Shown here piece by piece: positions 1,799 to 35,125 of a stretch of 64,000 nt of DNA. Position 1 is the stretch's first letter. Each line of letters starts with the position of its first letter. Both the position numbers and the translations under genes were made by a program. Source of the DNA: Clostridia bacterium (GTDB lineage Bacteria; Bacillota; Clostridia; Christensenellales; Aristaeellaceae); NCBI GenBank assembly GCA_017524725.1, contig JAFXUZ010000029.1:41672-105671 (forward strand). The letters run 5' to 3'. Under the pieces are notes generated by a model. It was not told the origin of the DNA and searched no databases. It saw nothing but the letters and a program-made list of their open reading frames with translations.

Positions 1799-2248
1799 AT
1801 GAAAGTGATCCTGCTGGAGGATGTCAAGAACGTAGGCAAAAAGGACGATATCGTCAACGTATCCGACGGTTACGCCCGCAATTTCCTGTTCCCCAGGAAA
1901 TGGGCCGTGGAATCCACTCCCGGCGCGGCCAAGGAGATCGAGCGCAAGCGCGCCGCCGAGCGCGCCAGGGAGATGGAGCGCCGCCAGGAGGCGGAAAAGA
2001 AGGCCGGCTCCCTCAGGGGCAAGGTGGTCACCGTCCGCACCCGCTGCGGCAGCCAGGGCAGGCTGTACGGCAGCGTGACCAGCGCCGAAGTGGCGGCCGC
2101 CCTGAAGGAGCAGTACGGCGTGGACGTGGACAAGCGCAAGGTGGAACTGGCCGAGAACATCCGTACCGTGGGCGAAAGCGCCGTCACCATCCGGCTGTAT
2201 CCCGAGATCAGTGCGAAAATGACGGTGAAGGTGGTCCCGGCGGAATGA
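1799..2248 (+). CDS. rplI: 50S ribosomal protein L9
   Basis: [36 protein letters not shown] is the canonical L9 N-terminus. About 150 aa. Followed by dnaB as in most Firmicutes. Confidence 0.92.
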
Positions 2249-2279
2249 TTTTAAGACCGGCGTTGGAAGGGGTGACAGG

Positions 2280-3626: not shown

Positions 3627-3656
3627 TAAAAAATACAGAACATACAGCGAGGTATT

Positions 3657-4715: not shown

Positions 4716-4790
4716 TGCCGTGTCCTGACGGACCTGAGACGCGAAACGCCGGGATATTGTAACGAATTGTGAAAATGTGTTTCGGAATAC

Positions 4791-4819
4791 TTGACGAATC
4801 ATTAAATAATTGTTACAAT
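4791..4819 (+). promoter_or_regulatory. Sigma-70-type promoter candidate (TTGACG-17-TACAAT with TGn extension)
   Basis: TTGACG at 4791-4796, a 17-nt spacer ending in TGT, then TACAAT at 4814-4819. Lies about 120 nt upstream of the lipoprotein gene. Confidence 0.45.
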
Positions 4820-4939
4820 ATCGTTAAACAGCCGGACTCTGCCCGTCTTTCGGGCGGCAAAAAAGGGCCCGGCTTCCGGCGGGCGTCTGCCTGCCGGCGG
4901 ATTTCCGTTACCCGCAGGGTGGATGGGAGGCGTCAGGAA

Positions 4940-5749
4940 ATGGCGAAAGCATCTACATGGAAAAAACGGTCCTTCGCGCTGCTTATGCTGGCGTCGGTTC
5001 TTTTGCTGTGTGCCTGCAGCGGCGGAGGCGGCAACGGGACCGATATCGTAACGGCGGTGCCCACGCAGAACGCGGCGCTGATCCCCACGGCAGTCCCCTC
5101 CGGCGGAACGGACTACCTGAGCGATCTTCCGGAAGGATACGATCCCGCCAGCGAAGAGAACGGCACGGAATACGACGGCGGCGACTATGACGAAATGGGC
5201 CGCTCGGTCTATGCCGGCGCCACTCCGATCCCGCTGGATCCGGTGGACAAACCCACCGCGTCCCCCCGTCCGGAATTGACCTTCAACTATAAGGAATACG
5301 CCTCCGCGGCCTTCGGCATCCGCTTTGAGATCCCCTACGACTGGACGGTGGACGACACCGCTTCCGACAGGCTGGTCTTTACCGATCCCAACACCCTGGA
5401 CAACGTGAACGCCACCCTGACCATCACGGTGAAGACGGTGGCCTCCACCTACAAGGGCGAGGACCTCAAGGCCGACCTGCAGTCCGAGGTGGCGGCGCTG
5501 GGCCAGTACAACTACACCGAATGGAAGCCGACCACCGCCGAAAAGCGCACCCTCCTTGCGGGAGAAGGATATTACGTCAACTACCGCGGCGTCCTGTATG
5601 ACGGCACCATCGTGCGCGGCAGGGTGCATATGGCCATCATCAACGGCAACCGCCGCATCGAGGTGGTGCTGAACTGCCCCGGATGGTTCAATTCCAGTTA
5701 TATCACGATGTTCACCCATTTCCGCAATACCCTTGCGTATATGGAATGA
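4940..5749 (+). CDS. Secreted/lipoprotein of unknown function
   Basis: Internal start of ORF 4769..5749 at MAKASTWKKRSFALLMLASVLLLCACSGGGG, a signal peptide with a lipobox-like LCAC. No family recognised. Confidence 0.55.
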   Translation: MAKASTWKKRSFALLMLASVLLLCACSGGGGNGTDIVTAVPTQNAALIPTAVPSGGTDYLSDLPEGYDPASEENGTEYDGGDYDEMGRSVYAGATPIPLDPVDKPTASPRPELTFNYKEYASAAFGIRFEIPYDWTVDDTASDRLVFTDPNTLDNVNATLTITVKTVASTYKGEDLKADLQSEVAALGQYNYTEWKPTTAEKRTLLAGEGYYVNYRGVLYDGTIVRGRVHMAIINGNRRIEVVLNCPGWFNSSYITMFTHFRNTLAYME

Positions 5750-5780
5750 GACCTGCCGCTTATACCGTGAGCTTTCATGG

Positions 5781-5806
5781 GGCCGCTTGCCAGAAAGCGG
5801 CCTTTT
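5781..5806 (+). terminator. Rho-independent terminator candidate
   Basis: GGCCGCTT-gccaga-AAGCGGCC followed by TTTT, downstream of the lipoprotein gene. Confidence 0.5.
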
Positions 5807-5837
5807 GAAATAAATACATGAAAGGTAAAGATGATTT

Positions 5838-6827
5838 TTGAGTACATCCCGATTTGCTTTGTTCGTGGACCTGGAAAACTGCGGGGCCAAGGCTTCCACG
5901 CTTTTGAACATCCTTGAAAAGGTCAAGATCCGCGGCGACATCCTTCTGGGCAAGGTGTACGGATACACCGACCGTTTTTCGGACCTGAAGGAGATCCTTC
6001 TGAGCAATACCTTTACGGTGGTGCCTTCCCTGCGCTACGGCATCAGCCAGAAAAACAACGCGGACATCCTCCTGGTGATCGACGCCCTGGAGGTGGCCTA
6101 CACCAATCCGCTGATCGATTCCTTCTGCATCGTTTCCGGCGACAGCGACTACACCCCGCTGGTGGGCAGGCTGAAGTCCATGGGCAAATTCGTCCTGGGC
6201 ATGTCCCGCAGCGAGGTGGCATCCTCCATATTCATCAACGCCTGCAACGAGTTCCAGTTCCTGGAGACCGTCAACTCCGCCACCCGTTCGGTCCGGCCCA
6301 AGAAGGGGCAGAACAAGGACGACCCGCTGGACGAGGTGGCCCTCAATAAGCTGCTGGAGGGCATCCTGGACGAACAGGACGCGGACGAAATGTACGCCAG
6401 CGAGCTCAAGGGCGTTTTGCTGCGCCTTCGTCCGGATTTCAACGAAAAGAATTACGGCTGTCCGGGCTTTGGCAAGCTGCTTGCCAAGCTGAGCGAAAAA
6501 TACGGCACCATGAAGATCAGGAACGACAACTACAACGTGCTGGTCTCCCTTTCCGCCGAGCCGTCCCCGGGGGACGACACCCCGAAGATCACCGGCGAAA
6601 ACTGGAGGAACCTGTTTGCCGAGCAGCTGAAGCATTACAAGGACGACGGCTTTGCCCGCGTCAATCCATCCATCCTGAAGGCGGACATCCAGTCGGCATA
6701 CCCGGATTACACCGACAAGGGGATCGGCTTCAAGCGCTTTTCCGACGTGCTCAAGCAATTGGAAAAGGACGGACTGCTGAAACTGGAGACCGACGGACAG
6801 AACAACCTGCTGATCCGCATGCTGTAA
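5838..6827 (+). CDS. NYN (LabA/DUF88-like) domain protein with C-terminal OST-HTH/LOTUS-like region
   Basis: TTG start. FALFVDLENCG...ADILLVIDALE...FCIVSGDSDYTPLVGRLKSMGKFV is the NYN/PIN-like acidic signature. The C-terminal part resembles OST-HTH repeats. Confidence 0.65.
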   Translation: MSTSRFALFVDLENCGAKASTLLNILEKVKIRGDILLGKVYGYTDRFSDLKEILLSNTFTVVPSLRYGISQKNNADILLVIDALEVAYTNPLIDSFCIVSGDSDYTPLVGRLKSMGKFVLGMSRSEVASSIFINACNEFQFLETVNSATRSVRPKKGQNKDDPLDEVALNKLLEGILDEQDADEMYASELKGVLLRLRPDFNEKNYGCPGFGKLLAKLSEKYGTMKIRNDNYNVLVSLSAEPSPGDDTPKITGENWRNLFAEQLKHYKDDGFARVNPSILKADIQSAYPDYTDKGIGFKRFSDVLKQLEKDGLLKLETDGQNNLLIRML

Positions 6828-6917
6828 GGCTATTCCCGCCTTTGCCGGCGCTTGAGCGTCATGAGGGTACGCGTTTTCTTAAAAACCCGGCCCGTCTTTT
6901 CTGTTGAAAAAGAAAAG

Positions 6918-6946
6918 TTGACAACTGTCCCGGGCGGGAGTAATAT
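6918..6946 (+). promoter_or_regulatory. Sigma-70-type promoter candidate (TTGACA-17-TAATAT)
   Basis: TTGACA at 6918-6923, 17-nt spacer, TAATAT at 6941-6946, upstream of the DUF1858 gene. Confidence 0.5.
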
Positions 6947-6996
6947 CGGTTTGGGCGTCCGGGAAACGGACGACATAAAACGGAGGTTTTTTGAAC

Positions 6997-7215
6997 ATGG
7001 AGATCACCAAGGAAATGAGCATCGGCGATGTCCTGCAATTGGACCGCTCCACCGCGGATATCCTGACCAGCTTCGGAATGCACTGCTTCGGTTGCCCCTA
7101 TTCCCTGATGGAGAGCCTGGAAGACGCCTGCATGGTCCATGGGGCCAATGTGGACGAACTGGTGGACCAGCTGAACGCCTATCTTAACGAAAAGGCCGAA
7201 AAGAAGGGCGAATAA
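6997..7215 (+). CDS. DUF1858 / hybrid-cluster-protein-associated redox disulfide domain protein
   Basis: 72 aa from the ATG at 6997 (GGAGG 9 nt upstream). MEITKEMSIGDVL...ILTSFGMHCFGCP with the CxGC motif typical of this small family. Confidence 0.6.
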   Translation: MEITKEMSIGDVLQLDRSTADILTSFGMHCFGCPYSLMESLEDACMVHGANVDELVDQLNAYLNEKAEKKGE

Positions 7216-7671
7216 ACCGCCCGGGCGGCAAAAAAAGACCGCGGAAGACAGTCCGGATCAGGGGTCCGCAGAGGACCGGATCCGGACCGACGCCTTCGGG
7301 CGGGGCAGAAAAAGAACGGCCATGCAAAAAGCGGAAACGCTCCTTCATGGCTGTTTTTATTTGTTCGGAAAGGATCTGCGCGCGGCCGGCCGGGGGCGGG
7401 AGATCAGGGACCCCGTTCCCGGAAAACAGGCAGCGGCAAAGTTTGCTTGCAAAAAGCTGTCCCTTCCTTGTATAATGATTATAGATGTTTGTATATTGAC
7501 CTGAGGCAGGGCGGAAGGGGCCGGCAACGATGGCAGACGGATATAGGAGCACTCAGTCAGTCAGGAACCCTTTGTCCCCGGCAAAAGCCAGGGGTCTCAT
7601 TTGACGCGGCAATACCGCCGCGCCTTTTTGTGTTTCGGAAGCATTGAGCTATAGTAAGGAGACAAGGGATC

Positions 7672-10005
7672 ATGAAACGGAAACCGTGGATCATCCCGGT
7701 GCTGACGGCGTTTCTGGCGGTGCTGTTTTGCGGCGCGGCGTTGGCGGACCGGAGCGGCACCTGCGGCGACAATGTGACCTACTCGTTCGATTCCGCCACC
7801 GGCACCCTGACCGTCAGCGGGACCGGCCCAATGGCGGATTATACCCTGTCCGCTCCCGCTCCATGGGTTGATGAACGTGCGCTCATCCAAACCGTTGTCA
7901 TTGAAAACGGCGTAACGCGCGTTGGCAGCCGCGCGTTCCAGGAATGCGCCAACCTGGACAGCATTTCCATCCCGGACAGCGTGACCGGTATCGGCAATTA
8001 TGCTTTCCTCAGCTGTACCGGTTTGACCGGTATAACCCTGCCCGGCAGTTTGACCGGCATAGGCAGTTTCGCCTTCGCCGGCTGCCGCGGTCTGGACAGC
8101 GTGGCCATCCCGGATGGCGTAACGGATCTTGGCGAATATGCTTTCAACCAATGCTCCGGCCTGATCACCGTGACCCTTCCTGGCAGCGTGACCAGTATTG
8201 GCAGCAGCGTCTTCAACGGCTGTACCGGTTTGACCGATATCGCCATCCCGGATACCGTGACCAGCATCCATTCCAATGCCTTCCGCAGCTGCACCGGCCT
8301 GAGCAGCGTGAGCCTTCCGTTCAGTGTGACCGGCATCGGGCCCGACGCTTTCGCTTATTGCACCGGCCTGACCGGCGTCACCGTCAACAACCCCGGCGCC
8401 GACATCGATGAGGACGCTTTTACCGCCCATGGTGCTTCCCTTACGTTCTACGGTCTGACGGGATCGACGGCGGAGACCTACGCCGCGGAACACAGCATCC
8501 CATTTACATCCGTTGGCGCTTTCGGGCAGTGCGGCGACAACGTGCAATACGCTTTCAACTCCGTCGCCGGTGTGGTGAACATCACCGGCAGCGGGCCGAT
8601 GTGGGATTACAATTACAGCACCGCCCCTTCCCCGTTTGAGTCGGATGATTCGGTCACTTCCGCGATCATCGGCGAGGGTGTGACGAGTATCGGCAGCTGG
8701 TTCTTCAACGAATGCGGGAACCTTGAAGGCGTCAGCCTGCCCGGAAGCCTCCTGCAGATCGGAGAGGGCGCCTTCTTCTACACTGCTCTGACTTTCGTGA
8801 CGATCCCCGGCAGTGTGACCGGCATCGGCGATGGTGCTTTCAGCGAATGCGTAAATCTGACGGGCGTTACCGTCCCGGACAGCGTGACCAGCATCGGCGA
8901 CTATGCTTTCTATGACTGCCGCAGCCTGAACAGCATCACCATCCCGGACGGCGTGACCGGCATCGGAGAGAATGCTTTCTGTAATTGCAGCAGCCTGAGT
9001 GGCATCAACATTCCGGACAGTGTGACCAGCATCGGTGACAATGCTTTCTTTGACTGCTTCAACCTGACCGGCATCACCATCCCGGACAGCGTGACCAGCA
9101 TCGGCGATTATGCTTTTGCCGGCTGCTTTCGCATTACCGGCGTCACCATCCCGGACAGCATGACCAGCATCAGCTGCGGTACTTTCTCGCGCTGCACCGG
9201 CTTGACGGACGTCACCATCCCGGACAGCGTGACCGGTATCGGCGACTATGCTTTCGACTACTGCACACACCTGACGAACATCACCATCCCGGACAGCGTG
9301 ACCAGCATCGGTGAGCATGCTTTCGATGCCTGTGGTGACTTGACGGGCGTCGCCATCCCGGACAGCGTGACCAGCATCGGCGACCAGGCTTTCGTTAACT
9401 GCATCAGCCTGACCAGCATTACCATCCCGGACAGCGTGACCAGCATCAGCAACGGTGCATTCGGGAACTGTTACAGCCTGAATAGCGTCACCATCCCGGG
9501 CAGCGTGACCAGCATTGGCAGACAGGCGTTCGTTAACTGCTACGAGCTGACCGACATTACCATCCCGGGCAGCGTGACCAGCATCAGCTATCTGGTTTTC
9601 AAAGGCTGCAGCGGGCTGACCGGTGTAACCATCCTCAATCCCGACTGCATCATCGGCGACGGTGACTACGACGTCTTCGAAGGCTGCCCCGCCGCCCTCG
9701 TCATCCGCGGCTACGAAGGCTCCACGGCTCAGGCCTACGCCCAGGCGGCGGGCATGAATTTTGCCGCCCTCGCCGTCCCGTCCCCGACCTTCACCCTTCC
9801 CGCCGGCCTGACGAGCATTGAAGCCGAAGCTTTCTCCGGCATCGCCGCCGAAGCCGTCCTGATCCCCGATACAGTGACAGCCATCGAGGGCGATCCCTTT
9901 GCCGGCAGCCGGGTAAAGTTCATCTACGGCGCGCCCGGCTCCGCCGCGGAGACCTTTGCCAACGGCAATGGTTATCTCTTCGTACCCGTACCCGTTGGAG
10001 ACTGA
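7672..10005 (+). CDS. BspA-type leucine-rich repeat surface protein
   Basis: AAGGAG RBS and a signal peptide (MKRKPWIIPVLTAFLAVLFCGAALA). More than 20 tandem ~23-aa units of the form IPDSVTSIGDYAFxxCxxLTxITIP. Confidence 0.85.
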   Translation: MKRKPWIIPVLTAFLAVLFCGAALADRSGTCGDNVTYSFDSATGTLTVSGTGPMADYTLSAPAPWVDERALIQTVVIENGVTRVGSRAFQECANLDSISIPDSVTGIGNYAFLSCTGLTGITLPGSLTGIGSFAFAGCRGLDSVAIPDGVTDLGEYAFNQCSGLITVTLPGSVTSIGSSVFNGCTGLTDIAIPDTVTSIHSNAFRSCTGLSSVSLPFSVTGIGPDAFAYCTGLTGVTVNNPGADIDEDAFTAHGASLTFYGLTGSTAETYAAEHSIPFTSVGAFGQCGDNVQYAFNSVAGVVNITGSGPMWDYNYSTAPSPFESDDSVTSAIIGEGVTSIGSWFFNECGNLEGVSLPGSLLQIGEGAFFYTALTFVTIPGSVTGIGDGAFSECVNLTGVTVPDSVTSIGDYAFYDCRSLNSITIPDGVTGIGENAFCNCSSLSGINIPDSVTSIGDNAFFDCFNLTGITIPDSVTSIGDYAFAGCFRITGVTIPDSMTSISCGTFSRCTGLTDVTIPDSVTGIGDYAFDYCTHLTNITIPDSVTSIGEHAFDACGDLTGVAIPDSVTSIGDQAFVNCISLTSITIPDSVTSISNGAFGNCYSLNSVTIPGSVTSIGRQAFVNCYELTDITIPGSVTSISYLVFKGCSGLTGVTILNPDCIIGDGDYDVFEGCPAALVIRGYEGSTAQAYAQAAGMNFAALAVPSPTFTLPAGLTSIEAEAFSGIAAEAVLIPDTVTAIEGDPFAGSRVKFIYGAPGSAAETFANGNGYLFVPVPVGD

Positions 10006-18957: not shown

Positions 18958-19749
18958 ATGGCAGCCTTTCAAATCAGATATTTTTCCAACTGCCTGCACC
19001 GTATGACGTCCTTTGAGATGCTCATCCCCAACGATTACCGCACGGATCTCGGGCAGAAGCCTCCGGCGGAGCCCATGCGCACCCTGTTCCTTCTGCACGG
19101 CTACACCGGCATGTCGGGAAACTGGGTGCCGGAGGGCCTGCCGGAGAAGTACAACTTTGCCATCGTCATGCCCACGGCGGAAAACTCCTTCTACCTGAAC
19201 GGGGCGGCTACCGGAAGCGCTTACCAGTCCATGGTGGGCGAGGAGCTGACGGATTACGTCCGCAGGACCTTCGGCCTGGTAAATAGCGCTGAAGATACCT
19301 GCATTGCGGGGCTTTCCATGGGTGGGTTCGGCGCGCTGCACACGGCCCTGGCCTATCCGGAACAGTTCGGCAGGGCGGCATGCCTGTCTTCCGCCCTCAT
19401 CGTCCACGGGATCGCCGGAATGAAGCCGGGGGAGGACAACGGCGTGGCCAATTATGAATACTACCGCGCCTGCTTCGGAGACCTGGACCGGGTGGAGGAG
19501 AGCGATGCCAACCCGGAGACGCTGGTGAAAAAGCTGAAGGCTGCCGGGAAAAAGATCCCGGACCTGTACCTGTGCTGCGGCACGGAGGATTTCCTGATCG
19601 AGCCCAACCGCGAAATGCATCGGTTCCTGGAATCGGAGAAGGTGCCGCATGAATACCACGAGGGCCCCGGGATCCATGATATGGTCTTCTGGTCCCAATG
19701 GATCGTGAAGGCCGTGGAGTGGATGTTTGGCCGGCCGCTCGGCCGCTGA
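18958..19749 (+). CDS. Esterase family protein (putative esterase/tributyrin-esterase-like alpha/beta hydrolase)
   Basis: Trimmed from ORF 18283..19749 to MAAFQIRYFS (GGGAGG RBS). LFLLHGYTG, nucleophile elbow GLSMGG, C-terminal DFL...H pattern. Confidence 0.75.
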   Translation: MAAFQIRYFSNCLHRMTSFEMLIPNDYRTDLGQKPPAEPMRTLFLLHGYTGMSGNWVPEGLPEKYNFAIVMPTAENSFYLNGAATGSAYQSMVGEELTDYVRRTFGLVNSAEDTCIAGLSMGGFGALHTALAYPEQFGRAACLSSALIVHGIAGMKPGEDNGVANYEYYRACFGDLDRVEESDANPETLVKKLKAAGKKIPDLYLCCGTEDFLIEPNREMHRFLESEKVPHEYHEGPGIHDMVFWSQWIVKAVEWMFGRPLGR

Positions 19750-19833
19750 GGCGGCGGGACGGGAAGCGTATCAGGGTATAGCAGGCCGCATTGGATAATC
19801 AACCATTTCCATCATACAAGGAGGACCCCCATC

Positions 19834-22248
19834 ATGCCTATCCAACCCTACAACCCGAAAGCGATCGAGCCCAAATGGCAGAAGATCTGGGCCGAGACCC
19901 ATGCTTTTGAGGCGGAAGCGAGCCACGCCAAACCCAAGTTTTACGGACTGATCGAGTTCCCGTATCCGTCCGGAGCCGGCCTCCACGTGGGCCATCCCCG
20001 GTCCAACACGGCCATGGACATCATCAGCCGGAAGCGGCGGATGCAGGGCTATAACGTGCTTTTCCCCATCGGCTGGGACGCCTTCGGCCTGCCGACGGAG
20101 AACTACGCCATCAAAAATCACATCCATCCGGCCCATGTGACCAGGGAAAACATCGACCATTTCCGCAAACAGCTGCAAATGCTGGGCTTCTCCTTTGATT
20201 ATACCAGGGAGGTGGACACCACCGACCCGGATTACTTTAAATGGACCCAGTGGATCTTCCTGAAGATGTTTGAGCACGGCCTGGTTTTCCGGGACAAAAC
20301 GCTGGTCAACTACTGCCCGTTCTGCAAGGTGGTGCTGTCCAACGAGGATTCCCAGGGCGGCAAGTGCGACGTCTGCCACAACGACGTGGTGCAACTGCCC
20401 AAGGACGTATGGTACCTGCGCATCACCAAGTACGCGGACCGCCTGCTGGAGGGCCTGAAGACGGTCGATTACCCGGAAAACATCGCCCAGCAGCAGATAA
20501 ACTGGATCGGCAAATCCACCGGCGCCTTTGTGCGTTTCCCCTTTGAAGGCCTGGACGAGACCATCGAGATCTATACCACCCGCCCCGATACCCTTTTCGG
20601 CGTCACTTTCATGGTCATGGCGCCGGAGCATCCGCTGATCGACAAGTACGCCGCGCGCATCGCCAACATGGACGCGGTGCGCTCCTACCGTGAGGAATGC
20701 GCCAAAAAGACCGAATTTGAGCGCACCCAGCTGGTGAAGGACAAGACCGGCCTGAAACTGGAGGGCCTGGCCGCCGTGAACCCGCTGACCGGGAAGGTGG
20801 TCCCCATCTACCTCTCCGACTACGTGATGATGGGCTATGGCACCGGCGCAATCATGGCCGTGCCCGCCCATGACCAGCGCGACTGGGAGTTCGCCCATAA
20901 GTTCGGCATCGACATCGTGCAGGTCATCAAGGGAGGGGACATCGGGAAGGAAGCCTATACCGGCGACGGCGAGATGATCAATTCCGGCTTCCTGAACGGC
21001 TATACCAACAAAAAGGATTCCATCGCCCGCGCCGTGGAAGAAGTGGAGAAACTGGGCTGCGGCCGTGCCGGCGTACAGTACAAGATGAAGGACTGGGCCT
21101 TCAACCGCCAGCGCTACTGGGGCGAGCCCATCCCGCTGGTCCACTGCCCCAGGTGCGGCGTTGTTGCCGTGCCCTATGAGGAACTGCCCCTGCGGCTGCC
21201 GGATGTGGAGAATTTCGAGCCCGGCACCGACGGCAAGAGCCCCCTGGCCAGGATCCCCGAGTTTGTGAACTGCGCCTGTCCCAAGTGCGGCGGCCCCGCC
21301 CAGCGCGAGACCGACACCATGCCCCAGTGGGCCGGCTCCAGCTGGTACTTCCTGCGTTACTGCGATCCGCACAATGACAAGGCCTTTGCCGACAGGAAGG
21401 AACTGGACTACTGGATGCCGGTGGACTGGTACAACGGCGGCATGGAGCACGTGACCCGCCACCTGCTGTACAGCCGCTTCTGGCATCAGTTCCTCTATGA
21501 CCTGGGGGAGGTATCCTGCCCCGAGCCCTATGCCAAGCGCACTGCCCAGGGCATGATCCTGGCTGCCGACGGTGAAAAGATGTCCAAGAGCCGCGGCAAC
21601 GTTATCAATCCAGACAACGTGGTGGACGAGATCGGTGCGGACGCCTTCCGCTGCTATGAGATGTTCATGGGCGCTTTCGACCAGGCGATCCCCTGGTCCA
21701 CCAACGGCGCCAAGGGCTGCCGCAAGTTCCTGGACCGTGTGTGGCGCCTGCAGGAAAACATCGTGCCCGGGAAAGCCTTCTCCCCGGCCCTGAATACCGT
21801 CATCCACGAGACCATCAAGAAGGTGTCCGAGGACATCGAGAAGATGAAGTTCAACACCGCCATCGCGGCGATGATGGCCCTGGTCAACGAGATGTGTGCC
21901 CGGCCCTCCGTTACCCAGGCGGACATGGAAGCCCTGCTGCTGATCCTCTCTCCCTTCACCCCGCATATCTGTGAGGAGATCTGGCAGAACCTGGGCCACT
22001 CCGATCCCATCCATCACCAGCCCTGGCCCGAATGGGACGAAAAGGCCCTTGTCAGGAGCGAGGTGGAGATTGCGGTGCAGGTCAACGGCAAGGTCCGCGG
22101 CCACATCATGGTGCCCGCGGACCTGACCAAAGCGGACGCCGAGCGGGACCTGCCCTCCAACCCCGAGGTGCAGCGCTACACCGCGGGCAAGACCGTCGTA
22201 AAGGTGGTCTTTGTCCCCGGGCGCCTGCTGAACATCGTGGTCAGGTAA
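19834..22248 (+). CDS. leuS: Leucine--tRNA ligase
   Basis: 804 aa. HIGH-type motif (AGLHVGHP), KMSKS present verbatim, and typical LeuS N-terminus (YNPKAIEPKWQKIW). Confidence 0.95.
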   Translation: MPIQPYNPKAIEPKWQKIWAETHAFEAEASHAKPKFYGLIEFPYPSGAGLHVGHPRSNTAMDIISRKRRMQGYNVLFPIGWDAFGLPTENYAIKNHIHPAHVTRENIDHFRKQLQMLGFSFDYTREVDTTDPDYFKWTQWIFLKMFEHGLVFRDKTLVNYCPFCKVVLSNEDSQGGKCDVCHNDVVQLPKDVWYLRITKYADRLLEGLKTVDYPENIAQQQINWIGKSTGAFVRFPFEGLDETIEIYTTRPDTLFGVTFMVMAPEHPLIDKYAARIANMDAVRSYREECAKKTEFERTQLVKDKTGLKLEGLAAVNPLTGKVVPIYLSDYVMMGYGTGAIMAVPAHDQRDWEFAHKFGIDIVQVIKGGDIGKEAYTGDGEMINSGFLNGYTNKKDSIARAVEEVEKLGCGRAGVQYKMKDWAFNRQRYWGEPIPLVHCPRCGVVAVPYEELPLRLPDVENFEPGTDGKSPLARIPEFVNCACPKCGGPAQRETDTMPQWAGSSWYFLRYCDPHNDKAFADRKELDYWMPVDWYNGGMEHVTRHLLYSRFWHQFLYDLGEVSCPEPYAKRTAQGMILAADGEKMSKSRGNVINPDNVVDEIGADAFRCYEMFMGAFDQAIPWSTNGAKGCRKFLDRVWRLQENIVPGKAFSPALNTVIHETIKKVSEDIEKMKFNTAIAAMMALVNEMCARPSVTQADMEALLLILSPFTPHICEEIWQNLGHSDPIHHQPWPEWDEKALVRSEVEIAVQVNGKVRGHIMVPADLTKADAERDLPSNPEVQRYTAGKTVVKVVFVPGRLLNIVVR

Positions 22249-22253
22249 ACCCA

Positions 22254-22309
22254 TAAAAAAGCAGAGACAGACGCCGTGCGCCGTCTGCCTCTGTTTTTTT
22301 TGAGATCCC
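22254..22309. terminator. Bidirectional rho-independent terminator between leuS and cca
   Basis: A6 - GCAGAGACAGACG - ccgtgcg - CGTCTGCCTCTG - T8. The flanking A and T runs serve both convergent genes. Confidence 0.7.
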
Positions 22310-22328
22310 CGTGTACCTGATACGGAAT

Positions 22329-23729
22329 TCAGGGGGCGTTTTTTCCGCCGCCGTCACCGCCGCCGTTTCCAGGGGGCCCGAAGGCGGTCGTCATCCTTTC
22401 GTAATGGGCTTTGGCGGCCTGCATCAGAAGGTCGCGGTCGTTGGGCACGTGGAAGCGTACCACCGCTTCCAGCAGGTAATGGAGCATTTCACCCACAGCC
22501 GGCCCGGAGATGCCCAGGGCCAGCATATCCCTGCCGCTGACGGCCAGCTGCTCCAGGTTCCAGCAGTCCCCGTCGCGTTCGATCCGGTCGAGCTCATCGA
22601 GGAGGGCGTTGGTCCACCGGGCCCTGCGGGCAACCATCGGGCTGTGGGCCCCCTGGTCCGCCATGTGCAGAAGGCACAGGTCCCGGGCGTTGTCAAGCCC
22701 GATGCGGGACGCGAGCAGCAGCATGTCCCCGGGGGAAAAGCGCTCGTCGTGGCGCAGTACCAGCATGTGGATGCGGGAACGCCAGGAGGAGGGCATGTTC
22801 AGGGCCGCGCAGATCCTGTCCGCCAGCATTGCGCCTTTGGCCGGATGGCCGTAAAAGTGGTCCACGCCGTCCGCGTCCCGGGTGTGGGTCTCGGGCTTGC
22901 CGCAGTCGTGCAGAAGGGCCGCCCAACGGACCACGGGATCCGGGGGAGACAGGTCCACGGTGCGCAGGCTGTGCTCCCATACGTCCCAGGAATGGTATAT
23001 GCATTCCTGGGGACAGCCCTTCATGGGTTTCAGTTCCGGGAGGGCCTCCAGGAGAACGCCGCCGTAATTCAGGGCGGCGTCGAGGAAAAAGGGGGAAACC
23101 AGCATGCCGGTGATCTCGTCGCATATCCTTTCCCGGCTGAGCATGGCCACCCGTTCCTTTTTTTCTTCCAGGGCGCGGGCGGTGGATCCCTCCAGGGAAA
23201 AGCCCAGGCGGGCCGCGAAACGGACGGCGCGGAGCATCCGGAGGGCGTCTTCCTCAAAGCGGCGGGCCGCATTGCCCACGCAGCGGATCAGTTTGCTTTC
23301 GATGTCCCTGAGCCCGTTGAAGGGATCCCTGAGACCCACGCCGTATTCCCAGGCCATGGCGTTGACGGTGAAATCCCGCCGGGCCAGATCCTCGGTGAGC
23401 TCAGTTGTAAAGCGTACGCCCTCCGGGTGCCTGCCGTCCAGGTAATCCCCGTCGGTGCGGAAGGTGGTGATCTCCACTTCCATGCCGTCCCTGACCAGGG
23501 TCAGCGTGCCCAGGCGGATGCCGGTCTCCTTCAGGGTATCGTTTGCAAATACCTTCTTCATTTCCTCCGGCAGGGCGGAGGTCGTCAGGTCGAAATCGTG
23601 GGGCTGCGCGCCAAGCAGCGTGTCCCGGACGCATCCGCCCACGGCGGCGGCCCGGAATCCGGCGGCGTTCAGGCGCTCCATCGCGTACATGACCGCGTCG
23701 GGGAAATGCATCTGAAGCGTTTCCGTCAT
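22329..23729 (-). CDS. cca: CCA-adding tRNA nucleotidyltransferase with HD domain
   Basis: Trimmed from ORF 22329..24293 to MTETLQMHFPD (GGAGGG RBS). GGCVRD...DFDL nucleotidyltransferase motif, RDFTVNAMA, and a C-terminal HD region (LLHDCGKP). Confidence 0.85.
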   Translation of the reverse strand: MTETLQMHFPDAVMYAMERLNAAGFRAAAVGGCVRDTLLGAQPHDFDLTTSALPEEMKKVFANDTLKETGIRLGTLTLVRDGMEVEITTFRTDGDYLDGRHPEGVRFTTELTEDLARRDFTVNAMAWEYGVGLRDPFNGLRDIESKLIRCVGNAARRFEEDALRMLRAVRFAARLGFSLEGSTARALEEKKERVAMLSRERICDEITGMLVSPFFLDAALNYGGVLLEALPELKPMKGCPQECIYHSWDVWEHSLRTVDLSPPDPVVRWAALLHDCGKPETHTRDADGVDHFYGHPAKGAMLADRICAALNMPSSWRSRIHMLVLRHDERFSPGDMLLLASRIGLDNARDLCLLHMADQGAHSPMVARRARWTNALLDELDRIERDGDCWNLEQLAVSGRDMLALGISGPAVGEMLHYLLEAVVRFHVPNDRDLLMQAAKAHYERMTTAFGPPGNGGGDGGGKNAP

Positions 23730-23864
23730 AAATATCCCTCCTGCTTCGGCTTTATGATAGCGAAAATACACCGCGATGTCAATGAAAGCGATACGGCAAA
23801 AGCCTTGCCCCACGGCAAAGCGCCGTGATAAAATGATCGTGACAATCTTTCGGGAGGGAAAAGG

Positions 23865-24371
23865 ATGGACGCGCTGGAGAAGGTCGTCAGGGCAAGGGAA
23901 ATCCTCAGGGACGTCACGCCCCTGAAATCGGACTGCGGGCGTATCTGCGGCCGCGCCTGCTGCGGGCAGGATGAAAACGGCAAGGGCGGCATGCTGCTTT
24001 TCCCCGGTGAGGAAGCGCTGTATCAAAACAATGCGGATTTCACTGTCCTTAGGGACGAAAGCGTTATCCCGGACGGAGCCATCGTCACATGCTCCGGACG
24101 CTGCGACAGGAATGAGAGGCCCCTTTCCTGCAGGTTTTTTCCCCTCCGGCCCACAGCCGGGGGAAAAGCGGTGATGGACCGCCGCGCCTCCTGGGTGTGC
24201 CCGCTGTACGAGGCCGGGAAAGCGGGCCTGTCGCCGGGGTTCGTTTCGGCGGCCGGTGAAGCGGCACTGGTGCTGGCGGAGAGCGAAGAGCATGTACGGT
24301 TCCTTACCGCCCTTAGGGAGCGCATCCTGTATGAGACCCGGGAGGAAATGTTATGGGGGACGGAAAAATGA
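23865..24371 (+). CDS. CxxCxxCC (YkgJ-like) putative zinc/iron-chelating domain protein
   Basis: 168 aa with CGRICGRACC near the N-terminus and further Cys clusters (CSGRCD, CRFFP). Its stop overlaps the next start (ATGA at 24368-24371). Confidence 0.5.
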   Translation: MDALEKVVRAREILRDVTPLKSDCGRICGRACCGQDENGKGGMLLFPGEEALYQNNADFTVLRDESVIPDGAIVTCSGRCDRNERPLSCRFFPLRPTAGGKAVMDRRASWVCPLYEAGKAGLSPGFVSAAGEAALVLAESEEHVRFLTALRERILYETREEMLWGTEK

Positions 24372-25573
24372 GGTTTATCCAGGTGCCCTCCCACAGGGAG
24401 CGGATCCCCGGAGGAAAAGTCGGGGGCAGGATCATTCTGGCGGACGGAACGGAGCCGCTTTGGGAATACGCAGGCACGGTGAAATGCGTTTACATCGACC
24501 CGCCCTTCAATACCGGCGGATCCTTTGTGATGCGCCAGAAGGTGGGGGAGAAGGACTGGGCCGGGGACAAAAGCTCCCTGACGGTGCCGGCTTATTCGGA
24601 CAGGAACGAAAGCCGGGGGGCGTATCACGCCTTCCTCCGGTCGCTGATCTACAGCGCCTGGACGCTGCTGGACGAACGGGGCGTGTTTTTCCTGCACCTG
24701 GACCCGCGGGAGAGCGCCTGGGCGAGGATCCTGTGCGACCAGGTTTTCGGCGAGGATCATTTTGTCAACGAGATCATCTGGTCCTACCAGAGCGGCGGCA
24801 GGACCACGAAGCGCTTCCCGACCAAGCACGACACCATTCTTTTTTACCGCAAGGGCAGGGACATGCGTTTCGACCTGAAGGCCGTGCCGATCAAGCGGGA
24901 GGACAACCGCAAAAACCATATGCGCCGCCTGGTGGATGAAAACGGCCGGACGTACAGGACCATCGTCTCGGGCGGGAAGATCTACACTTATTATGACGAC
25001 GACCCTGTGTATCCCGGCGACGTGTGGACCGACATATCCCACCTGCAGCAAAAGGACCCGCGGCGCACCGGCTACGACACCCAGAAGCCTCCGGCGCTGC
25101 TTGAGCGGGTGCTGCTGCCGGTGACCCTGCCCGGGGAAACGGTTGCGGACCTGTGCTGCGGCAGCGGTTCAACCGGGGCGGCCGCGGCGGCCCTGGACAG
25201 GCCTTTCCTGATGACCGATATATCCCCCCTGGCGGTTTTGACGGCCCGGCGCAGGCTGGTCGACTGCGACCTGACGGTGGACCTGCCCTCCGTCACGGAC
25301 GGCGGGGACCTGGAGTGCGAATGTGGCCGGGAGGGGGACAGCCTGACCTTCACCCTGAAAAGCTATGGCAAAGGCGGTCTGGACGAGGCCGACACCTGGG
25401 CCGTGGGCGAGATAAGGGACGGTGTGTTCACGGTTTCGGCCCTCAGCCGCCGCACCCGCAAAACCCCGGCCCTGGCCGAATCCCTCACCATGCCCGCAAG
25501 CCCATACGCCGCGGTAGAGATCACCGACGTGTACGGGAAAAGGAGCGTTTGGGCGGCGGAGAGCGAAAAATGA
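24368..25573 (+). CDS. Site-specific DNA methyltransferase (N6/N4 family, beta-class motif order), orphan
   Basis: Start taken at the ATG at 24368 (MRFIQ) overlapping the upstream stop. Catalytic motif IV VYIDPPFNTG comes first, then TQKP, then the SAM motif LCCGSGSTG near the C-terminal third. About 110-aa C-terminal extension. No nuclease gene on either side. Confidence 0.8.
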   Translation: MRFIQVPSHRERIPGGKVGGRIILADGTEPLWEYAGTVKCVYIDPPFNTGGSFVMRQKVGEKDWAGDKSSLTVPAYSDRNESRGAYHAFLRSLIYSAWTLLDERGVFFLHLDPRESAWARILCDQVFGEDHFVNEIIWSYQSGGRTTKRFPTKHDTILFYRKGRDMRFDLKAVPIKREDNRKNHMRRLVDENGRTYRTIVSGGKIYTYYDDDPVYPGDVWTDISHLQQKDPRRTGYDTQKPPALLERVLLPVTLPGETVADLCCGSGSTGAAAAALDRPFLMTDISPLAVLTARRRLVDCDLTVDLPSVTDGGDLECECGREGDSLTFTLKSYGKGGLDEADTWAVGEIRDGVFTVSALSRRTRKTPALAESLTMPASPYAAVEITDVYGKRSVWAAESEK

Positions 25574-25665
25574 AGAGTGAAGAGTGAAGAGTGGAGAGTG
25601 AAGAGCGGAGAGTGAAGAGTGGAGAGTGAAGAGTGGAGAGTGAAGAGTGGAGAGTGAAGAGTGGA
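25571..25665. repeat. Tandem heptanucleotide array (TGRAGAG, equivalently GTGRAGA), 13 units plus a partial
   Basis: Direct reading gives 13 contiguous 7-nt units from 25571 to 25661, alternating GAAGAG/GGAGAG types with one CGGAGAG variant. The first unit contains the methyltransferase stop codon. The array ends in GTGGATCTTTGGATTAC. Confidence 0.9.
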
Positions 25666-25765
25666 TCTTTGGATTACCTGGTCCGCCGGCTGCGGTGTTC
25701 CGGGGTGCGGCGATCGGCAATGAATGGCGGCCCGGGGGCCGCCGCCGAGGGCAAAACGCAGGAGT

Positions 25766-25810
25766 CGCAAAAAACAAAGAGCGGAGAACGGCTCTGTTTC
25801 CGTTCTCCGC
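25766..25810 (-). terminator. Rho-independent terminator (minus-strand sense) between the two heptamer arrays
   Basis: GCGGAGAACGG-8 nt-CCGTTCTCCGC (11-bp stem). On the minus strand it is followed by TCTTTGTTTTTTG. No U-run on the plus strand. Confidence 0.6.
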
Positions 25811-25821
25811 AATCAAAGTAA

Positions 25822-25934
25822 TCTTACTCTCCACTCTCCACTCTTTCCGTTCCCCGTAATCAGAGTAATCTTACTCTTCACTCTCCACTCTTCACTCTTC
25901 ACTCTGTAATATCACTCTCCACTCTGTAATCTCC
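25822..25934. repeat. Inverted-orientation heptamer array (TCTYCAC units) punctuated by GTAAT motifs
   Basis: TCTCCAC/TCTTCAC units (reverse complement of GTGRAGA) at 25828-25841, 25875-25902 and 25916-25922, plus degenerate units. They are interrupted by GTAATC/GTAATA motifs that mirror GATTAC at the end of the left array. Confidence 0.8.
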
Positions 25935-25937
25935 TGT

Positions 25938-26954
25938 TCAGCAGTCGATATCGTTGAATTCCCTTAAGTTTTCCTCCCCGGGCGTCAGTTCCCCTTTTTC
26001 AATGCGCCGGATCACCTCGACGATGCGGTCGTTGACCGGGGTGGGGGTGTTTGTGCGGTCACCCTCCCGGCACAGAGCGCCGTTGATGGCCTCGATCTCG
26101 CATTTTTTGCCCTTTTTGATATCCTGCAGCATGCTGGGCTCGATGGCGGCGTGCTTGCGGATGGCCAGGGGGAGGATCTTAAGGGCCAGGGCTTTTTTGA
26201 AGGCGGTTTTATAATAAAGCAGTGCTTCGATGTCCTTGCCCTGGACTTTGGCGAAGGAGACCCCCGCGGCGCGGCCGGCCTCGATGCATTCCTGTATGGC
26301 CTGGAGGGTGAGGCGGCAGCATCTTTTGCCGCGCACGCAGTCCCCGAAGGTGCCGCCGATGACCGTTCCCATGCCGGAGAAAGCGGCGTTGATCAGCAGT
26401 TTGGACCAGCGGGTGCCGGCCAGGTCGTGGACCTCGTCCACCGGGCACATGGTCTCCAGCACGTTCCTGACGTCGTCGCAGCGCCGGTCCCAATGGCCGT
26501 CCCAGGGTCCCAGGCCGAAGGTCATGGAGGACGCGCTGCTTGTCAGGCGGGAAACTCCGTCCTCCACCAGGGTGGCGCCCCAGGCGACGGTGCAGCCCAG
26601 CACACGGCTCTGGCCCAGGATGTCCGCCAGTTCCTTTTCGGGCAGTCCGTTCTGCATGGTGCACAGAACGCCGTTTTCACCGAGCCGTGATTTTAAAAAC
26701 TGGGCGCTCCGGGCGTTGTCCAATTGTTTTGTTATCAGGAAGATCACGTCGTAGACTCCGTCCATTTCCCGGGGCAGGACGGCGCGGACGGGGACCGTCA
26801 TCTCCACGTTCCCGATCACCCTGGCGCCCTTTTCGTTGAGGACGTCCACCATCTCCTGCCGGTGGTGGACCAGGGTGATGTCGACGCCTGCCTTGGAAAG
26901 ATAAGCGCCCAGGACGATACCCAGGGAGCCGGCGCCGTAGATCGCAGTGCGCAT
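25938..26954 (-). CDS. 2-dehydropantoate 2-reductase family protein (PanE/ApbA-like)
   Basis: Trimmed from ORF 25938..27179 to MRTAIYGAGSLGIVLGAYL (Rossmann GxGxxG; GGAGG RBS). About 338 aa, the typical length and pattern for ketopantoate reductase-like proteins. Confidence 0.7.
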   Translation of the reverse strand: MRTAIYGAGSLGIVLGAYLSKAGVDITLVHHRQEMVDVLNEKGARVIGNVEMTVPVRAVLPREMDGVYDVIFLITKQLDNARSAQFLKSRLGENGVLCTMQNGLPEKELADILGQSRVLGCTVAWGATLVEDGVSRLTSSASSMTFGLGPWDGHWDRRCDDVRNVLETMCPVDEVHDLAGTRWSKLLINAAFSGMGTVIGGTFGDCVRGKRCCRLTLQAIQECIEAGRAAGVSFAKVQGKDIEALLYYKTAFKKALALKILPLAIRKHAAIEPSMLQDIKKGKKCEIEAINGALCREGDRTNTPTPVNDRIVEVIRRIEKGELTPGEENLREFNDIDC

Positions 26955-32605: not shown

Positions 32606-35059
32606 TCAGTAGATGGGCTCGGCCCGGAACAGTTCATAGGTGCTGCCGGCCGGGTAGACCTGGACCTGCTGGGTGGCCCCATTGGGGCCGAACTGCTGGC
32701 GGTCCCCGACGGTACTGATGTAGGAGAACAGTTCGTTCAGGGTGAGGATGCCGTTGCGGTCGGAGTCCGCGGGCATGCGACCTGAGGTCCCGACGCCGCC
32801 GGTGAGCCACTGGGTGAAGTAGTTGTGGGCGGGGGCGTCTTCGGTGCCCCAGGAATCCTGCAGGTAACGGGTGGCGCACAGCACATAGAACTTGTCAGGC
32901 ACGCGGAATTCGCCGATGCGGCTTTGGACGATCTGTCCATTGCCGTTTTCGTCATAGATATAGGTCAGATCCTCCGCCCGGTCCAGCTTTTGATCTGGGA
33001 AGGCGTTCACGATAGCGCCGGCGGTGAGGCCGGACGCGGAGTTCTGCTGATCGGGATGCGCCGGGTCGTAGACTGCGGCGCCGGCACCGCAGGATTCGAT
33101 GACCACGATCACCTCGCCCGGGACCGAATCCAGTTTGTCGGCAAGCTCGTAAAGCAGCAGCCAGCTTTCCTGCCGGGCGGAGTTCACGCAGTTCAGGGAC
33201 CCGGGACCCTGTTCCCATTCCCGGTAAGTCGTGACTGAGTCGCCGTGGGTGGCGATGAAGAAAAGGGAAACGTCGTCGTTGTCCGCGCCGGCGAACGTGC
33301 TGTCCACCAGGCTGAGGACGTCATTCGCCGACCGGTCGATATATTTCGACGGCGTTCTGTACCGGGTGCCTATGGGGGTAAAGCGCGAGGTAAGCATGGA
33401 ATACATCAGGTCGCAGTCGCCCCCGTTGCGGTTGCAGGTCTCGTCCGGATAATGGACCTGACCGATGAGCAGCGCGCGGTAATTGATCCCGCGGACCCGG
33501 GCCCGGGCATGGACTGACAGGGGAGTCTCATTATTGCCGACGGAGGCCGTCACCGCAAAGAGGTATTCGGTTTTAAAACGGAGGCTCGACAGGTCGATAT
33601 GGGTCTCGGTGATGCCCGGGATCCGGCTGCCGGACATGAGGGCGCCGTCCTCCGCTTCCGCGTAATACAGGGTGTAGCTCGAAGCCCCGGGAACGGCGGA
33701 CCAGGTGATGCTGACCGAACCGTCCCGGCGGGCCGTGATCTGGGTGATGGTCGGGGCGGCCGGACTGGCCGGACCCGATGTGACCGTGATCTGCACGCTG
33801 CCGGAGGGAGACCAGGTGCCGGTGCAGAGTTTGTTCACCATCTGCCGGTAGAGGGAGGCGGTGAAGCCGCCGGAATACTGCCCGGGGAGACCTACGTGGT
33901 TTGCGGCCGGATCGCCGCTGATCACGCCCAGGCGGGGATTGGTCCCGCCGAGCTGGCCCCAGCTGCCCGAAATAAGGCGGGACAGGGCGTCGACAGCCGT
34001 TACGCCGACGCGCTTCAGGGCGCTGGTGACCGCCTCTGGGAAGAAAACGGAACAGTCACTGTCCGTGCCGATGATGTGTCCGTTGTTCTGCACGGCGGCC
34101 TGCCGGATGGAATCGATGATGCCGCCGCCGCAGGACAGGATCACCTCCACGCCGCTCCGGTACCAGAGATCGGCTGTGGCGTATACGCCCGGACCGGCGG
34201 AAAAGGTGCCGGTGCAGGTATAGGCGACGGTCACGCTGCCTGTGACCCCCAATTCACGGGCGGCGGCGTTGGCGCCGCGGATAAAGCCCTGGCCGCAGGA
34301 TACCACGTCATCTGTTTCCATGCCGCCCATGAAGCCCAGGCTGCGGAAGCCCATGCGGACGGCGGCGTATCCTGCCATGAAACCCGCCTGGTCCATGCGG
34401 TAAAGGGAGGCAAAGACGTTGTTCGCCGGGCTGCTCATTTCGGCGTCCAGGCAGATGTAGCGTACCGAGGGGTTGGCCATGGCTGAGGCGCGCACCTCCG
34501 ACGAGCGCAGGGAACCCACCGTCACGATCACATTGAAGCCCTCCAGGACCGGGGTATCGATATCCCCGCAGTACCAGGCGCAGGGAAGGCCGCGGCCTGA
34601 GCACCAGGCGGACACTGCCTGCCACGCGTCATAGTGCAGGGTCCCGTTTGTGGGTGCGGCGCTGTCCCCGACCACGGCGACGCGGTATTCCGCGCGCGTC
34701 AGGGTAAGCCCCGTGCAGCCGGTGAAAGCCGTAGAGGCAACGCTTACGTTTTCCGGGAGGTAAAGAAGGCCTGAAAGGCCCGTGCAGCCGTCAAAGGCGT
34801 GGGCGCCGATGCGCTTCACGCTGCCGGGGATTTTCGGCACGCCTGTAAGCCTCGTGCATCCGGCGAAAGCGTATGCGCCGATCTCCGTCACGCCGTCCGG
34901 GATCGCAAGGACGCCGGTGAGGCTTTTGCATCCCCGGAATGCTTCGCTTTCGATCGTCTGTGTTCCGGCGGGGAGGGACAGCGTGCCCGCAGCGGCAAAG
35001 GCATGGACGGAAAGCGCCAGGCAGGCGAGAAGGAACAGGAGGATCACAGGCTTTTTCAT
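32606..35059 (-). CDS. Secreted multidomain protein: BspA-type LRR + BMP/PnrA-like binding domain + FN3 + caspase-like (peptidase C14-type) domain + Ca-binding/dockerin-like tail
   Basis: Start at MKKPVILLFLLACLALSVHAFA (AAGGAG RBS). LRR units (IPDGVTEIGAYAFAGCTRLTGV). BMP-like block (AGFMAGYAAVRMG...FIRGANAAA...ILSCGGG...IIGTDSD). FN3-like block (ITWSAVPGASSYTLYY). Caspase-like block (YRALLIGQVHY...DVSLFFIATHGD...VIVVIESCGAGA, a His/Cys dyad). DSDRNGILTLNELF at the C-terminus. Confidence 0.7.
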   Translation of the reverse strand: MKKPVILLFLLACLALSVHAFAAAGTLSLPAGTQTIESEAFRGCKSLTGVLAIPDGVTEIGAYAFAGCTRLTGVPKIPGSVKRIGAHAFDGCTGLSGLLYLPENVSVASTAFTGCTGLTLTRAEYRVAVVGDSAAPTNGTLHYDAWQAVSAWCSGRGLPCAWYCGDIDTPVLEGFNVIVTVGSLRSSEVRASAMANPSVRYICLDAEMSSPANNVFASLYRMDQAGFMAGYAAVRMGFRSLGFMGGMETDDVVSCGQGFIRGANAAARELGVTGSVTVAYTCTGTFSAGPGVYATADLWYRSGVEVILSCGGGIIDSIRQAAVQNNGHIIGTDSDCSVFFPEAVTSALKRVGVTAVDALSRLISGSWGQLGGTNPRLGVISGDPAANHVGLPGQYSGGFTASLYRQMVNKLCTGTWSPSGSVQITVTSGPASPAAPTITQITARRDGSVSITWSAVPGASSYTLYYAEAEDGALMSGSRIPGITETHIDLSSLRFKTEYLFAVTASVGNNETPLSVHARARVRGINYRALLIGQVHYPDETCNRNGGDCDLMYSMLTSRFTPIGTRYRTPSKYIDRSANDVLSLVDSTFAGADNDDVSLFFIATHGDSVTTYREWEQGPGSLNCVNSARQESWLLLYELADKLDSVPGEVIVVIESCGAGAAVYDPAHPDQQNSASGLTAGAIVNAFPDQKLDRAEDLTYIYDENGNGQIVQSRIGEFRVPDKFYVLCATRYLQDSWGTEDAPAHNYFTQWLTGGVGTSGRMPADSDRNGILTLNELFSYISTVGDRQQFGPNGATQQVQVYPAGSTYELFRAEPIY

Positions 35060-35125
35060 TCGGCGGCTCCTTAAAAAAGCTGCTGCGTTCAAACCGCAGC
35101 AGCCTGTGTTGGCTTTGTGTGAAGG

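Follow-up and report, generated by a model that had tools for sequence, protein, structure and literature searches.

Tandem arrays of seven-nucleotide units are over-represented in bacteria (Rehm et al. 2015; PMC4692102). Xanthomonas carries 186 intergenic (GGGAATC)n arrays per genome, of 2 to 26 units and with no assigned function, 70-75 as plus/minus inverted pairs, and their lengths differ between species (PMC4692102). The same authors cite the heptanucleotide repeats of Calothrix and a polymerase-slippage hypothesis for the 7-nt preference; inverted pairs are reported to be rare in Nostoc (PMC4692102). TAACTGA repeats are common to Beggiatoaceae, Cyanobacteria, and Bacteroidetes (MacGregor 2015; PMC4679880). 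The locus considered here is an inverted pair of GTGRAGA arrays situated between a DNA methylase gene and a convergent panE-like gene in a 64,000-nt stretch (hereafter the window) of a Clostridia genome (assembly GCA_017524725.1, contig JAFXUZ010000029.1). It is probably a non-coding, slippage-prone heptanucleotide simple sequence repeat (SSR), (GTGRAGA)n, belonging to this class of bacterial intergenic heptamers.

The locus shares with the Xanthomonas arrays the 7-nt unit, the mostly intergenic tandem arrangement, the lack of an assigned function, the close pairing of opposite-strand arrays (which concerns a large share of the arrays there), and lengths differing between related genomes. It differs from them in that GTGRAGA is incapable of forming a G-quadruplex, the host is known from a metagenome-assembled genome (MAG) of Christensenellales-like Clostridia, a one-way terminator is situated between the arms, one of which extends over a stop codon, and a single locus is found within 64 kb. 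The short tandemly repeated repetitive (STRR) sequences of Calothrix and Nostoc and the GGGGAYT repeat of Nostoc are dispersed non-coding heptamer arrays with several unit types per genome, as in three of the loci fetched in this work (L029, L050, and L056; fetched loci and contigs bear L numbers throughout), but their units and phylum are different. TAACTGA resembles GTGRAGA in being one intergenic heptamer present in distant phyla with no known transfer mechanism; its arrays, however, are mostly of 2-6 copies just upstream of start codons, with one indirect repeat reported, whereas the array described here lies at 3' ends (PMC4679880). The initial annotation, made from the sequence alone, knew of no described element of this form, a statement that cannot be upheld in view of the inverted heptamer pairs of Xanthomonas (PMC4692102) and the arrays of Nostoc/Calothrix and Beggiatoaceae (PMC4679880). 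Given these published arrays, the architecture is of a known kind, and what is new is the GTGRAGA unit and the Clostridia host. A literature search for literal GTGRAGA strings returned eukaryotic primer or oligonucleotide matches only and no bacterial paper in the library searched.

The methylase side of the locus comprises the following features:

24353 to 25573, plus strand: N6_N4 DNA methylase gene, 406 aa (Pfam PF01555, E 3e-34; list of open reading frames, ORFs)
25560 to 25570, plus strand: degenerate lead units AGAGCGAAAAA, encoding the final methylase codons (array start at 25560 according to Tandem Repeats Finder, TRF)
25571 to 25661, plus strand: left array, 13 contiguous heptamers TGAAGAG/TGGAGAG with one CGGAGAG (sequence, TRF, and repeat search)
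25662 to 25685, plus strand: left-array tail TGGATCTTTGGATTACCTGGTCCG, resembling in alignment the L017 tail TGGAGTTTTGGAATGGTCCG and the L141 tail TGAAGTTATGGAATTTG

The TGA stop codon of the methylase (25571-25573) constitutes the first three bases of the left array, and the 13 contiguous 7-nt units that begin with it are as originally described. Three TGAAGAG units are followed by TGGAGAG, TGAAGAG, and CGGAGAG, and then by a strict TGAAGAG/TGGAGAG alternation. TRF finds the array with period 7 (14.9 copies, 25560-25663) and with period 14 (6.8 copies, 96% matches); as it places the start at 25560, two degenerate units extend into the last four codons of the methylase. The array is otherwise non-coding and lies between the stops of the convergent genes, its overlap with coding sequence being limited to the stop codon and about four codons of degenerate units. 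The assertion that stops occur in all frames is valid for the purine-rich strand but not for the pyrimidine strand, which lacks the dinucleotides TA and TG and hence has no stop in any frame, for which reason spurious minus-strand ORFs extend across it in the ORF list. In phase-variable methylase contingency loci a simple repeat is found inside the mod or hsdS ORF. Here a simple repeat is likewise physically joined to a DNA methylase gene, but since it begins at the stop codon, a change in array length cannot shift the methylase frame. As to a possible recognition of the repeat by the methylase, the GTGRAGA unit contains, by eye, GAGTG and not the CcrM-like GANTC. An identical methylase protein is on record (19 contigs read, 9 places shown).

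If up to 2 mismatches are allowed, the array 14-mer is found 17 times in the window, always at this locus, against 0.28 occurrences expected, and the two arms form the sole inverted repeat of at least 24 nt within 3 kb in the 64-kb window, save one weak pair. Seven contigs, drawn from six other metagenome assemblies, agree exactly with the window over the part of the region that each covers, five of them covering the whole interval; owing to this identity across independent assemblies the arrays can be regarded as real and not as an assembly artefact. The Logan (k=31) contigs L007-L009, L013, L014, and L016 break off either some 28 nt after the left array begins or, in the right arm, at 25876, which makes the arrays systematic breakpoints for short-read assemblies.

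The convergent methylase/PanE pair is conserved among relatives, whereas the arrays are not. In L019 and L020, with methylases 76% and 73% identical to that of the window, the two genes are separated by spacers of 68 and 95 nt with a plain hairpin and no array, and in L142 and L153-156, whose PanE belongs to the same 90% cluster, by a 46-nt spacer, again with no array. L278 (methylase 89% identical) has tRNA genes downstream and no array; L017 and L018 (86%) have three inserted genes downstream and no array after the methylase. The only relative with an array at the methylase stop is L141 (88%), in which 4-5 units are present and the TGA is again part of the first unit; it has no right arm, and behind the array comes a terminator whose T-run is on the plus strand. 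The L017 lineage has a TGAAGAG/TGGAGAG array of 11 units located between two unrelated genes (L017:6551-6631), with a lead GCGGAGAGTGAAAA and a tail GTGGAGTTTTGGAATGGTCCG resembling those of the window locus. The number of exact units at this sister-lineage site is 7 in L017, 4 in L143, and 6 in both L144 and L146, the flanks being near-identical. The length differences at both places, 4-5 units in L141 versus 13 in the window at orthologous positions and 4, 6, or 7 at the sister-lineage locus, bear out the suggestion of a slippage-prone hypervariable locus. A link to the methylase, in turn, is contradicted by the absence of the array after the methylase in five related lineages and by the presence of the same array at the unrelated L017 site.

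In the sister lineage the insert between methylase and PanE consists of genes for a 245-aa protein, a 404-aa protein, and a WG_beta_rep protein (L017:4216-7190, L143:3535-5420), the heptamer array lying within it. A 28-nt tandem repeat of 3.6 copies is present at L017:6725-6826, where L143 and L144 have unrelated sequence.

The comparison of methylase 3' ends also indicates where the left array may have come from. Homology with L153, L142, and L019 continues into the degenerate lead (to 25560-25570), which is homologous to the purine-rich C-terminal codons of the array-less relatives; these possess a purine-rich tail where the window has the degenerate lead. At its methylase stop L019 carries ...GACTGAAGAAG, so that TGAAGAAG is already there, and ends ...GAC TGA AGAAG. 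The left array would most likely have grown in place, by replication slippage from this purine-rich, TGAAGAR-like stop context as judged from the alignment. It now varies freely in length.

Beyond the left array the locus comprises a central segment, the right arm, and panE:

25726 to 25743, no strand assigned: GC-rich hairpin GGCGGCCCGGGGGCCGCC with no U-tract on either strand (sequence; paired in both minimum-free-energy folds)
25768 to 25810, minus strand: predicted intrinsic terminator of panE (terminator scan)
25794-25840 and 25841-25887, no strand assigned: two tandem copies of a 47-nt unit, 89% identity (repeat search; TRF period 47)
25822 to 25934, minus strand: right arm, TCTYCAC units (sequence, motif and repeat searches)
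25938 to 26954, minus strand: gene for a ketopantoate reductase (PanE/ApbA) of 338 aa (Pfam PF02558 and PF08546; gene calls in L001 and L010)

The right arm was correctly recognised as the reverse complement of the left one, arranged in three blocks punctuated by GTAATC/GTAATA linkers. Exact TCTYCAC units are found at 25828-25841 (two), 25875-25902 (four), and 25916-25922 (one), and with these 7 units, compared with 13 in the left arm, it is far more degenerate; the best pairing between the arms extends over 32 nt at 100% and 41 nt at 80%. Each 47-nt unit consists of the 3' half of the terminator stem, the GTAATC linker, and the first part of a heptamer block, and it follows from this tandem duplication that the right arm was built by duplication. 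Its ultimate source would be a later, degenerate inverted copy of the array together with the linker, produced for instance by template switching and then duplicated as the 47-nt unit. Both hairpins proposed between the arms, a GC-rich one and an 11-bp one terminating in the minus sense only, are present: the 11-bp stem (8 GC pairs) at 25810-25781 is followed by TCTTTGTTTTTTG on the minus strand, and the plus strand has no T-run. The panE stop codon lies at 25938-25940. A longer, 413-aa version of the panE ORF is absent from the records, public gene calls using the 338-aa start. The geometry of the arrays means that, as anticipated, both convergent mRNAs bear GUGRAGA repeats at their 3' ends. 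These repeats are consequences of the geometry and not its cause, as are the stem of some 90 bp, enclosing the panE terminator, into which any plus-strand read-through RNA can fold and the possible recombination between the arms considered below.

The same unit is found in many other genomes. A scan of GTDB (one genome per species, pattern GTGRAGA x3.4) yielded at least 120 (GTGRAGA)n loci, against about 2 expected by our own estimate from the database size. Hosts among the matches listed include Prevotella, Chitinophagales, Saprospiraceae, Planctomycetota, Acidobacteria, Gemmatimonadales, Verrucomicrobia, Campylobacteria, Synergistia, and many Clostridia; the arrays listed have from 3 to 20 units, and several genomes contain more than one locus. 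About 14 of the listed loci have a nearby array on the opposite strand, typically laid out as stop codon, array, short hairpin or loop, and inverse array. Period 7 prevails in the loci so collected, with 205 arrays, the other periods from 4 to 12 having roughly 8-20 each; the 205 are made up of 126 arrays of the GTGRAGA type by which the loci had been selected, 8 runs of N, and about 70 arrays of other units. Viral contigs contain 63 GTGRAGA loci; permuting the heptamer at matched composition gave three controls, with 17, 10, and 36 loci, respectively. The notion of GTGRAGA as a unique heptamer was discarded, because the permuted controls also occur in 10-36 viral loci. As to gene orientation, 22 of 70 classified arrays lie between convergent genes, a crude count made on the 120 loci with greedy longest-ORF calls that are unreliable in high-GC genomes, the 42 arrays scored as 'inside' genes probably falling in spurious ORFs.

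Runs of different heptamers stand side by side, partly in one 7-nt register, in a Planctomycetaceae (L050:735-990), a Saprospiraceae (L029:930-1129), and a Campylobacteraceae MAG (L073:3719-3872), which suggests that units drift or are replaced within a lasting period-7 tract. In the Acidobacteria MAG SZAS-13, L056 has five (GGATTTC)n arrays within 8 kb (1010-7513) as well as a GTGGAGA inverted pair, and near-identical stop / (GTGGAGA)4 / loop / (TCTCCAC)4 hairpins recur on three contigs, L030, L043, and L056. GTGRAGA arrays occur at no fewer than seven distinct places on the 88.7-kb viral contig IMGVR_UViG_3300028805_000089 (L159, L170, L190, L197, and L219), and the repeat can thus reach a high density in phage genomes. 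The GTGAAGA arrays of the Clostridia MAGs L024, L054, L063, and L071 adjoin tRNA genes and abut a terminator hairpin, e.g., AAAAATCGACAAG...CTTGTCGATTTTT, the whole tRNA/array/terminator arrangement being common to L024 and L063.

The window locus thus displays what characterises a heptanucleotide SSR, namely 7-nt units joined head to tail, a non-coding site, a variable copy number, and a unit recurring at multiple loci and in multiple genomes. The view of the arrays as a special element fails on the grounds that the initial annotation itself had named, since they are absent in close relatives and represent a widespread simple repeat unrelated to the flanking genes. A dedicated function for the methylase or for panE is neither needed nor indicated.

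The two arms might also act on each other, as suggested by one metagenomic contig, L005, in which the central segment is reversed:

25605 to 25845, no strand assigned: approximate segment reversed in L005, the crossover lying within heptamer units and the limits being inexact

L005 (ERZ27256878) differs from the window by 3 single-nucleotide polymorphisms (SNPs) in 6.4 kb. Its positions 1-6446 correspond to 19158-25604 of the window, and its positions 6423-6549 to 25845 down to 25719, reversed; after the methylase the contig thus has some four degenerate units joined directly to 25845-25719 in reverse complement, which brings the terminator T-run onto the plus strand. L015, from the same sample, has the window orientation over the stretch extending from PanE to within the left array. 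A false path of the de Bruijn graph through the inverted repeat would yield the same join as that of L005. A distinct, real haplotype is favoured over such a path because the junction contains two substitutions present in neither arm, and the chances that L005 reflects a true inversion difference appear evenly balanced. The arms would in that case serve as substrates of intramolecular homologous recombination, inverting some 160-240 bp with the one-way terminator, so that of the recombination hotspot envisaged at the outset the inverted central segment is suggestive, although seen in a single contig. Among JGI metagenome contigs, a terminator 30-mer and a conserved 26-mer from the panE 3' end gave 0 matches each, which left no JGI contig of this lineage for a count of orientations.

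Several observations weigh against the account given above of an ordinary, slippage-driven repeat with recombining arms. Slippage alone does not account for the recurrence of one heptamer across phyla. The seven contigs of the same strain type are identical, and the array length is therefore constant within that type. Only one heptamer locus exists within the 64-kb window, so that an organism-wide family is not demonstrated. The lead GCGGAGAGYGAAAA and the tail (GTGGA..TTTGGAAT..GGTCCG) are common to the window and the unrelated L017 locus, which hints at the copying of a defined element and not at two independent births by slippage. Finally, the inversion is seen in one MEGAHIT contig that ends inside the segment and has two unexplained substitutions at the junction.

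Of the other explanations, the one that fares best, although it is unlikely, is that of a selected RNA element comparable to REP/BIME, which would terminate transcription, insulate the convergent genes from each other, block 3' exonucleases, or be cut by RNase III. In enterobacteria, repetitive extragenic palindromes (REP) and the bacterial interspersed mosaic elements (BIME) composed of them are located at 3' ends or between convergent genes, occur as inverted pairs, and can form hairpins in mRNA; REP units, which owe their spread to a RAYT transposase, are imperfect palindromes of 35-40 nt. The RNA of 25560-25945 folds very stably in both senses (-204.9 and -194 kcal/mol, z -13.1 and -13.8), and the long stem foreseen for a read-through transcript is indeed predicted, with about 90 bp in either sense; such a stem is to be expected, however, because any inverted repeat would fold in this manner, and no U-tract follows it. 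Elsewhere, too, arrays often come directly after stop codons and beside terminator hairpins, with the 22 of 70 in convergent position favouring the same idea as far as crude ORF calls permit. Against this, the hairpin is not conserved, the relatives having a plain terminator hairpin in a spacer of 46-95 nt, the arms consist of tandem 7-mers instead of 35-40-nt imperfect palindromes, and Rfam offers no match: a search of Rfam 15 on 25000-26500 with E up to 10 gave only chance-level matches with E above 1, and at gathering score two tRNAs alone were found in the whole window.

Somewhat less likely still is a programmed invertible switch with the arrays as inverted repeats and the one-way terminator as cargo. 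Invertons such as fimS or the invertible promoters of Bacteroides are short segments bounded by inverted repeats and found in two orientations; they possess defined recombinase sites and an invertase of their own, and what they carry is a promoter. In the window orientation such a switch would let panE be terminated and the methylase transcript read through; in the flipped one, that of L005, the methylase would be terminated and panE transcription would continue antisense into the methylase gene. The flipped junction of L005 and the standard orientation of L015 in one sample, the mere 3 SNPs between L005 and the window in 6.4 kb, the plus-strand T-run of the homologous terminator in L141, and the strictly one-way nature of the terminator agree with this. 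The inverted-repeat flanks are present, but the arms are a degenerate simple repeat and not a defined recombinase site, and the cargo is a terminator, with 0 sigma-70-like promoter sites in 24800-26800. No recombinase or transposase is encoded among the 28 window ORFs compared with Pfam, 25 of which have non-recombinase matches and 3 no match, some 15 other window ORFs lying outside the scan and a distant gene being possible. Furthermore, most close relatives do not have the structure, which is thus not a conserved regulator, and the flipped junction, being known from one contig only, could be a fixed difference between co-existing strains.

A small mobile element resembling a miniature inverted-repeat transposable element (MITE), or a gene-conversion cassette in which lead, heptamer array, and tail are copied together between intergenic sites, is very doubtful. 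It would explain the lead and tail shared by the window locus and the sister-lineage locus of L017/L143, as well as the array families at several loci of single genomes. No target-site duplication at the ends and no clean empty site can be discerned, however, the relatives differing over the whole spacer; no transposase is encoded nearby among the 28 ORFs scanned, and neither the window nor the fetched loci contain a second copy of the central segment. Roles in protein binding, be it as the DNA iteron or the GGA-motif RNA sponge put forward earlier (the latter of CsrA type) or as the target of a HutP-like reader of NAG-N4 triplets, are scarcely credible, as periodicity alone (GAG each 7 nt and GGA each 14 nt, as read from the sequence) speaks for them, whereas close relatives differ in the presence, copy number, and sequence of the array, similar arrays are formed by many unrelated heptamers, and the array has no promoter of its own.

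The window is a piece of ordinary chromosome of an uncultured high-GC (~61%) Clostridia / Christensenellales-like bacterium, and the contig names XIEF21 and STEW19 suggest ruminant-gut samples. The neighbouring genes encode, in order, leucyl-tRNA synthetase (LeuRS), the CCA-adding enzyme, a conserved 168-aa ORF, and the methylase, followed on the minus strand by PanE, DUF951, TruA, PrmA, and an AddA-like helicase. The Pfam matches are mostly to housekeeping proteins and include, besides LeuRS, the CCA-adding enzyme, and the AddA-like helicase, DnaB, PBP1, PFOR, and GS-III. The central 170 nt were also considered as a dispersed element and rejected as such, there being no second copy in the window or in any fetched locus. 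The 168-aa ORF (23865-24371, plus strand), which is without a Pfam match and shares 19 nt with the start of the methylase gene, is found upstream of the methylase in all relatives examined (L017, L019, L020, L153, and L278). This ORF may encode a conserved partner of the methylase, which is widespread and looks like an orphan enzyme. Two genes for proteins with leucine-rich repeats (LRR) contain tandem repeats of their own. One (7672-10005, plus strand) codes for a BspA-type LRR protein (LRR_5, E 3e-173) and harbours the strongest tandem repeat of the window, with 69-nt / 207-nt periodicity at 8806-9622. The other (32606-35092, minus strand) codes for an 828-aa protein with an unusual combination of BspA-type LRR, Bmp/PnrA substrate-binding, fibronectin III, and caspase (Peptidase_C14) domains, and has a 72-nt tandem repeat at 34769-34903.

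With the repeat explained as above, a striking sequence becomes an ordinary labile simple repeat and its link to the methylase is removed, while the locus is usable as a variable-repeat strain marker in a lineage of ruminant-gut Clostridia. There is a small chance that more is involved, either a recombinase-independent flip-flop of the terminator by the inverted arrays or a dedicated mechanism generating 7-nt repeats beyond polymerase slippage. The latter is conceivable because heptamer arrays occur in more than 10 phyla and in phages, form in-register mosaics (L050 and L029), and recur in layouts of stop, array, hairpin, and inverse array. In the former case sub-populations would alternate between panE termination with methylase read-through and methylase termination with antisense panE transcription. 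The occurrence of (GTGRAGA)n and other heptamers across phyla and phages raises again the question of why 7 nt is favoured. If the inversion is real and reversible, expanding simple repeats alone would create an invertible terminator between convergent genes, and thereby a route to phase variation without a dedicated recombinase.

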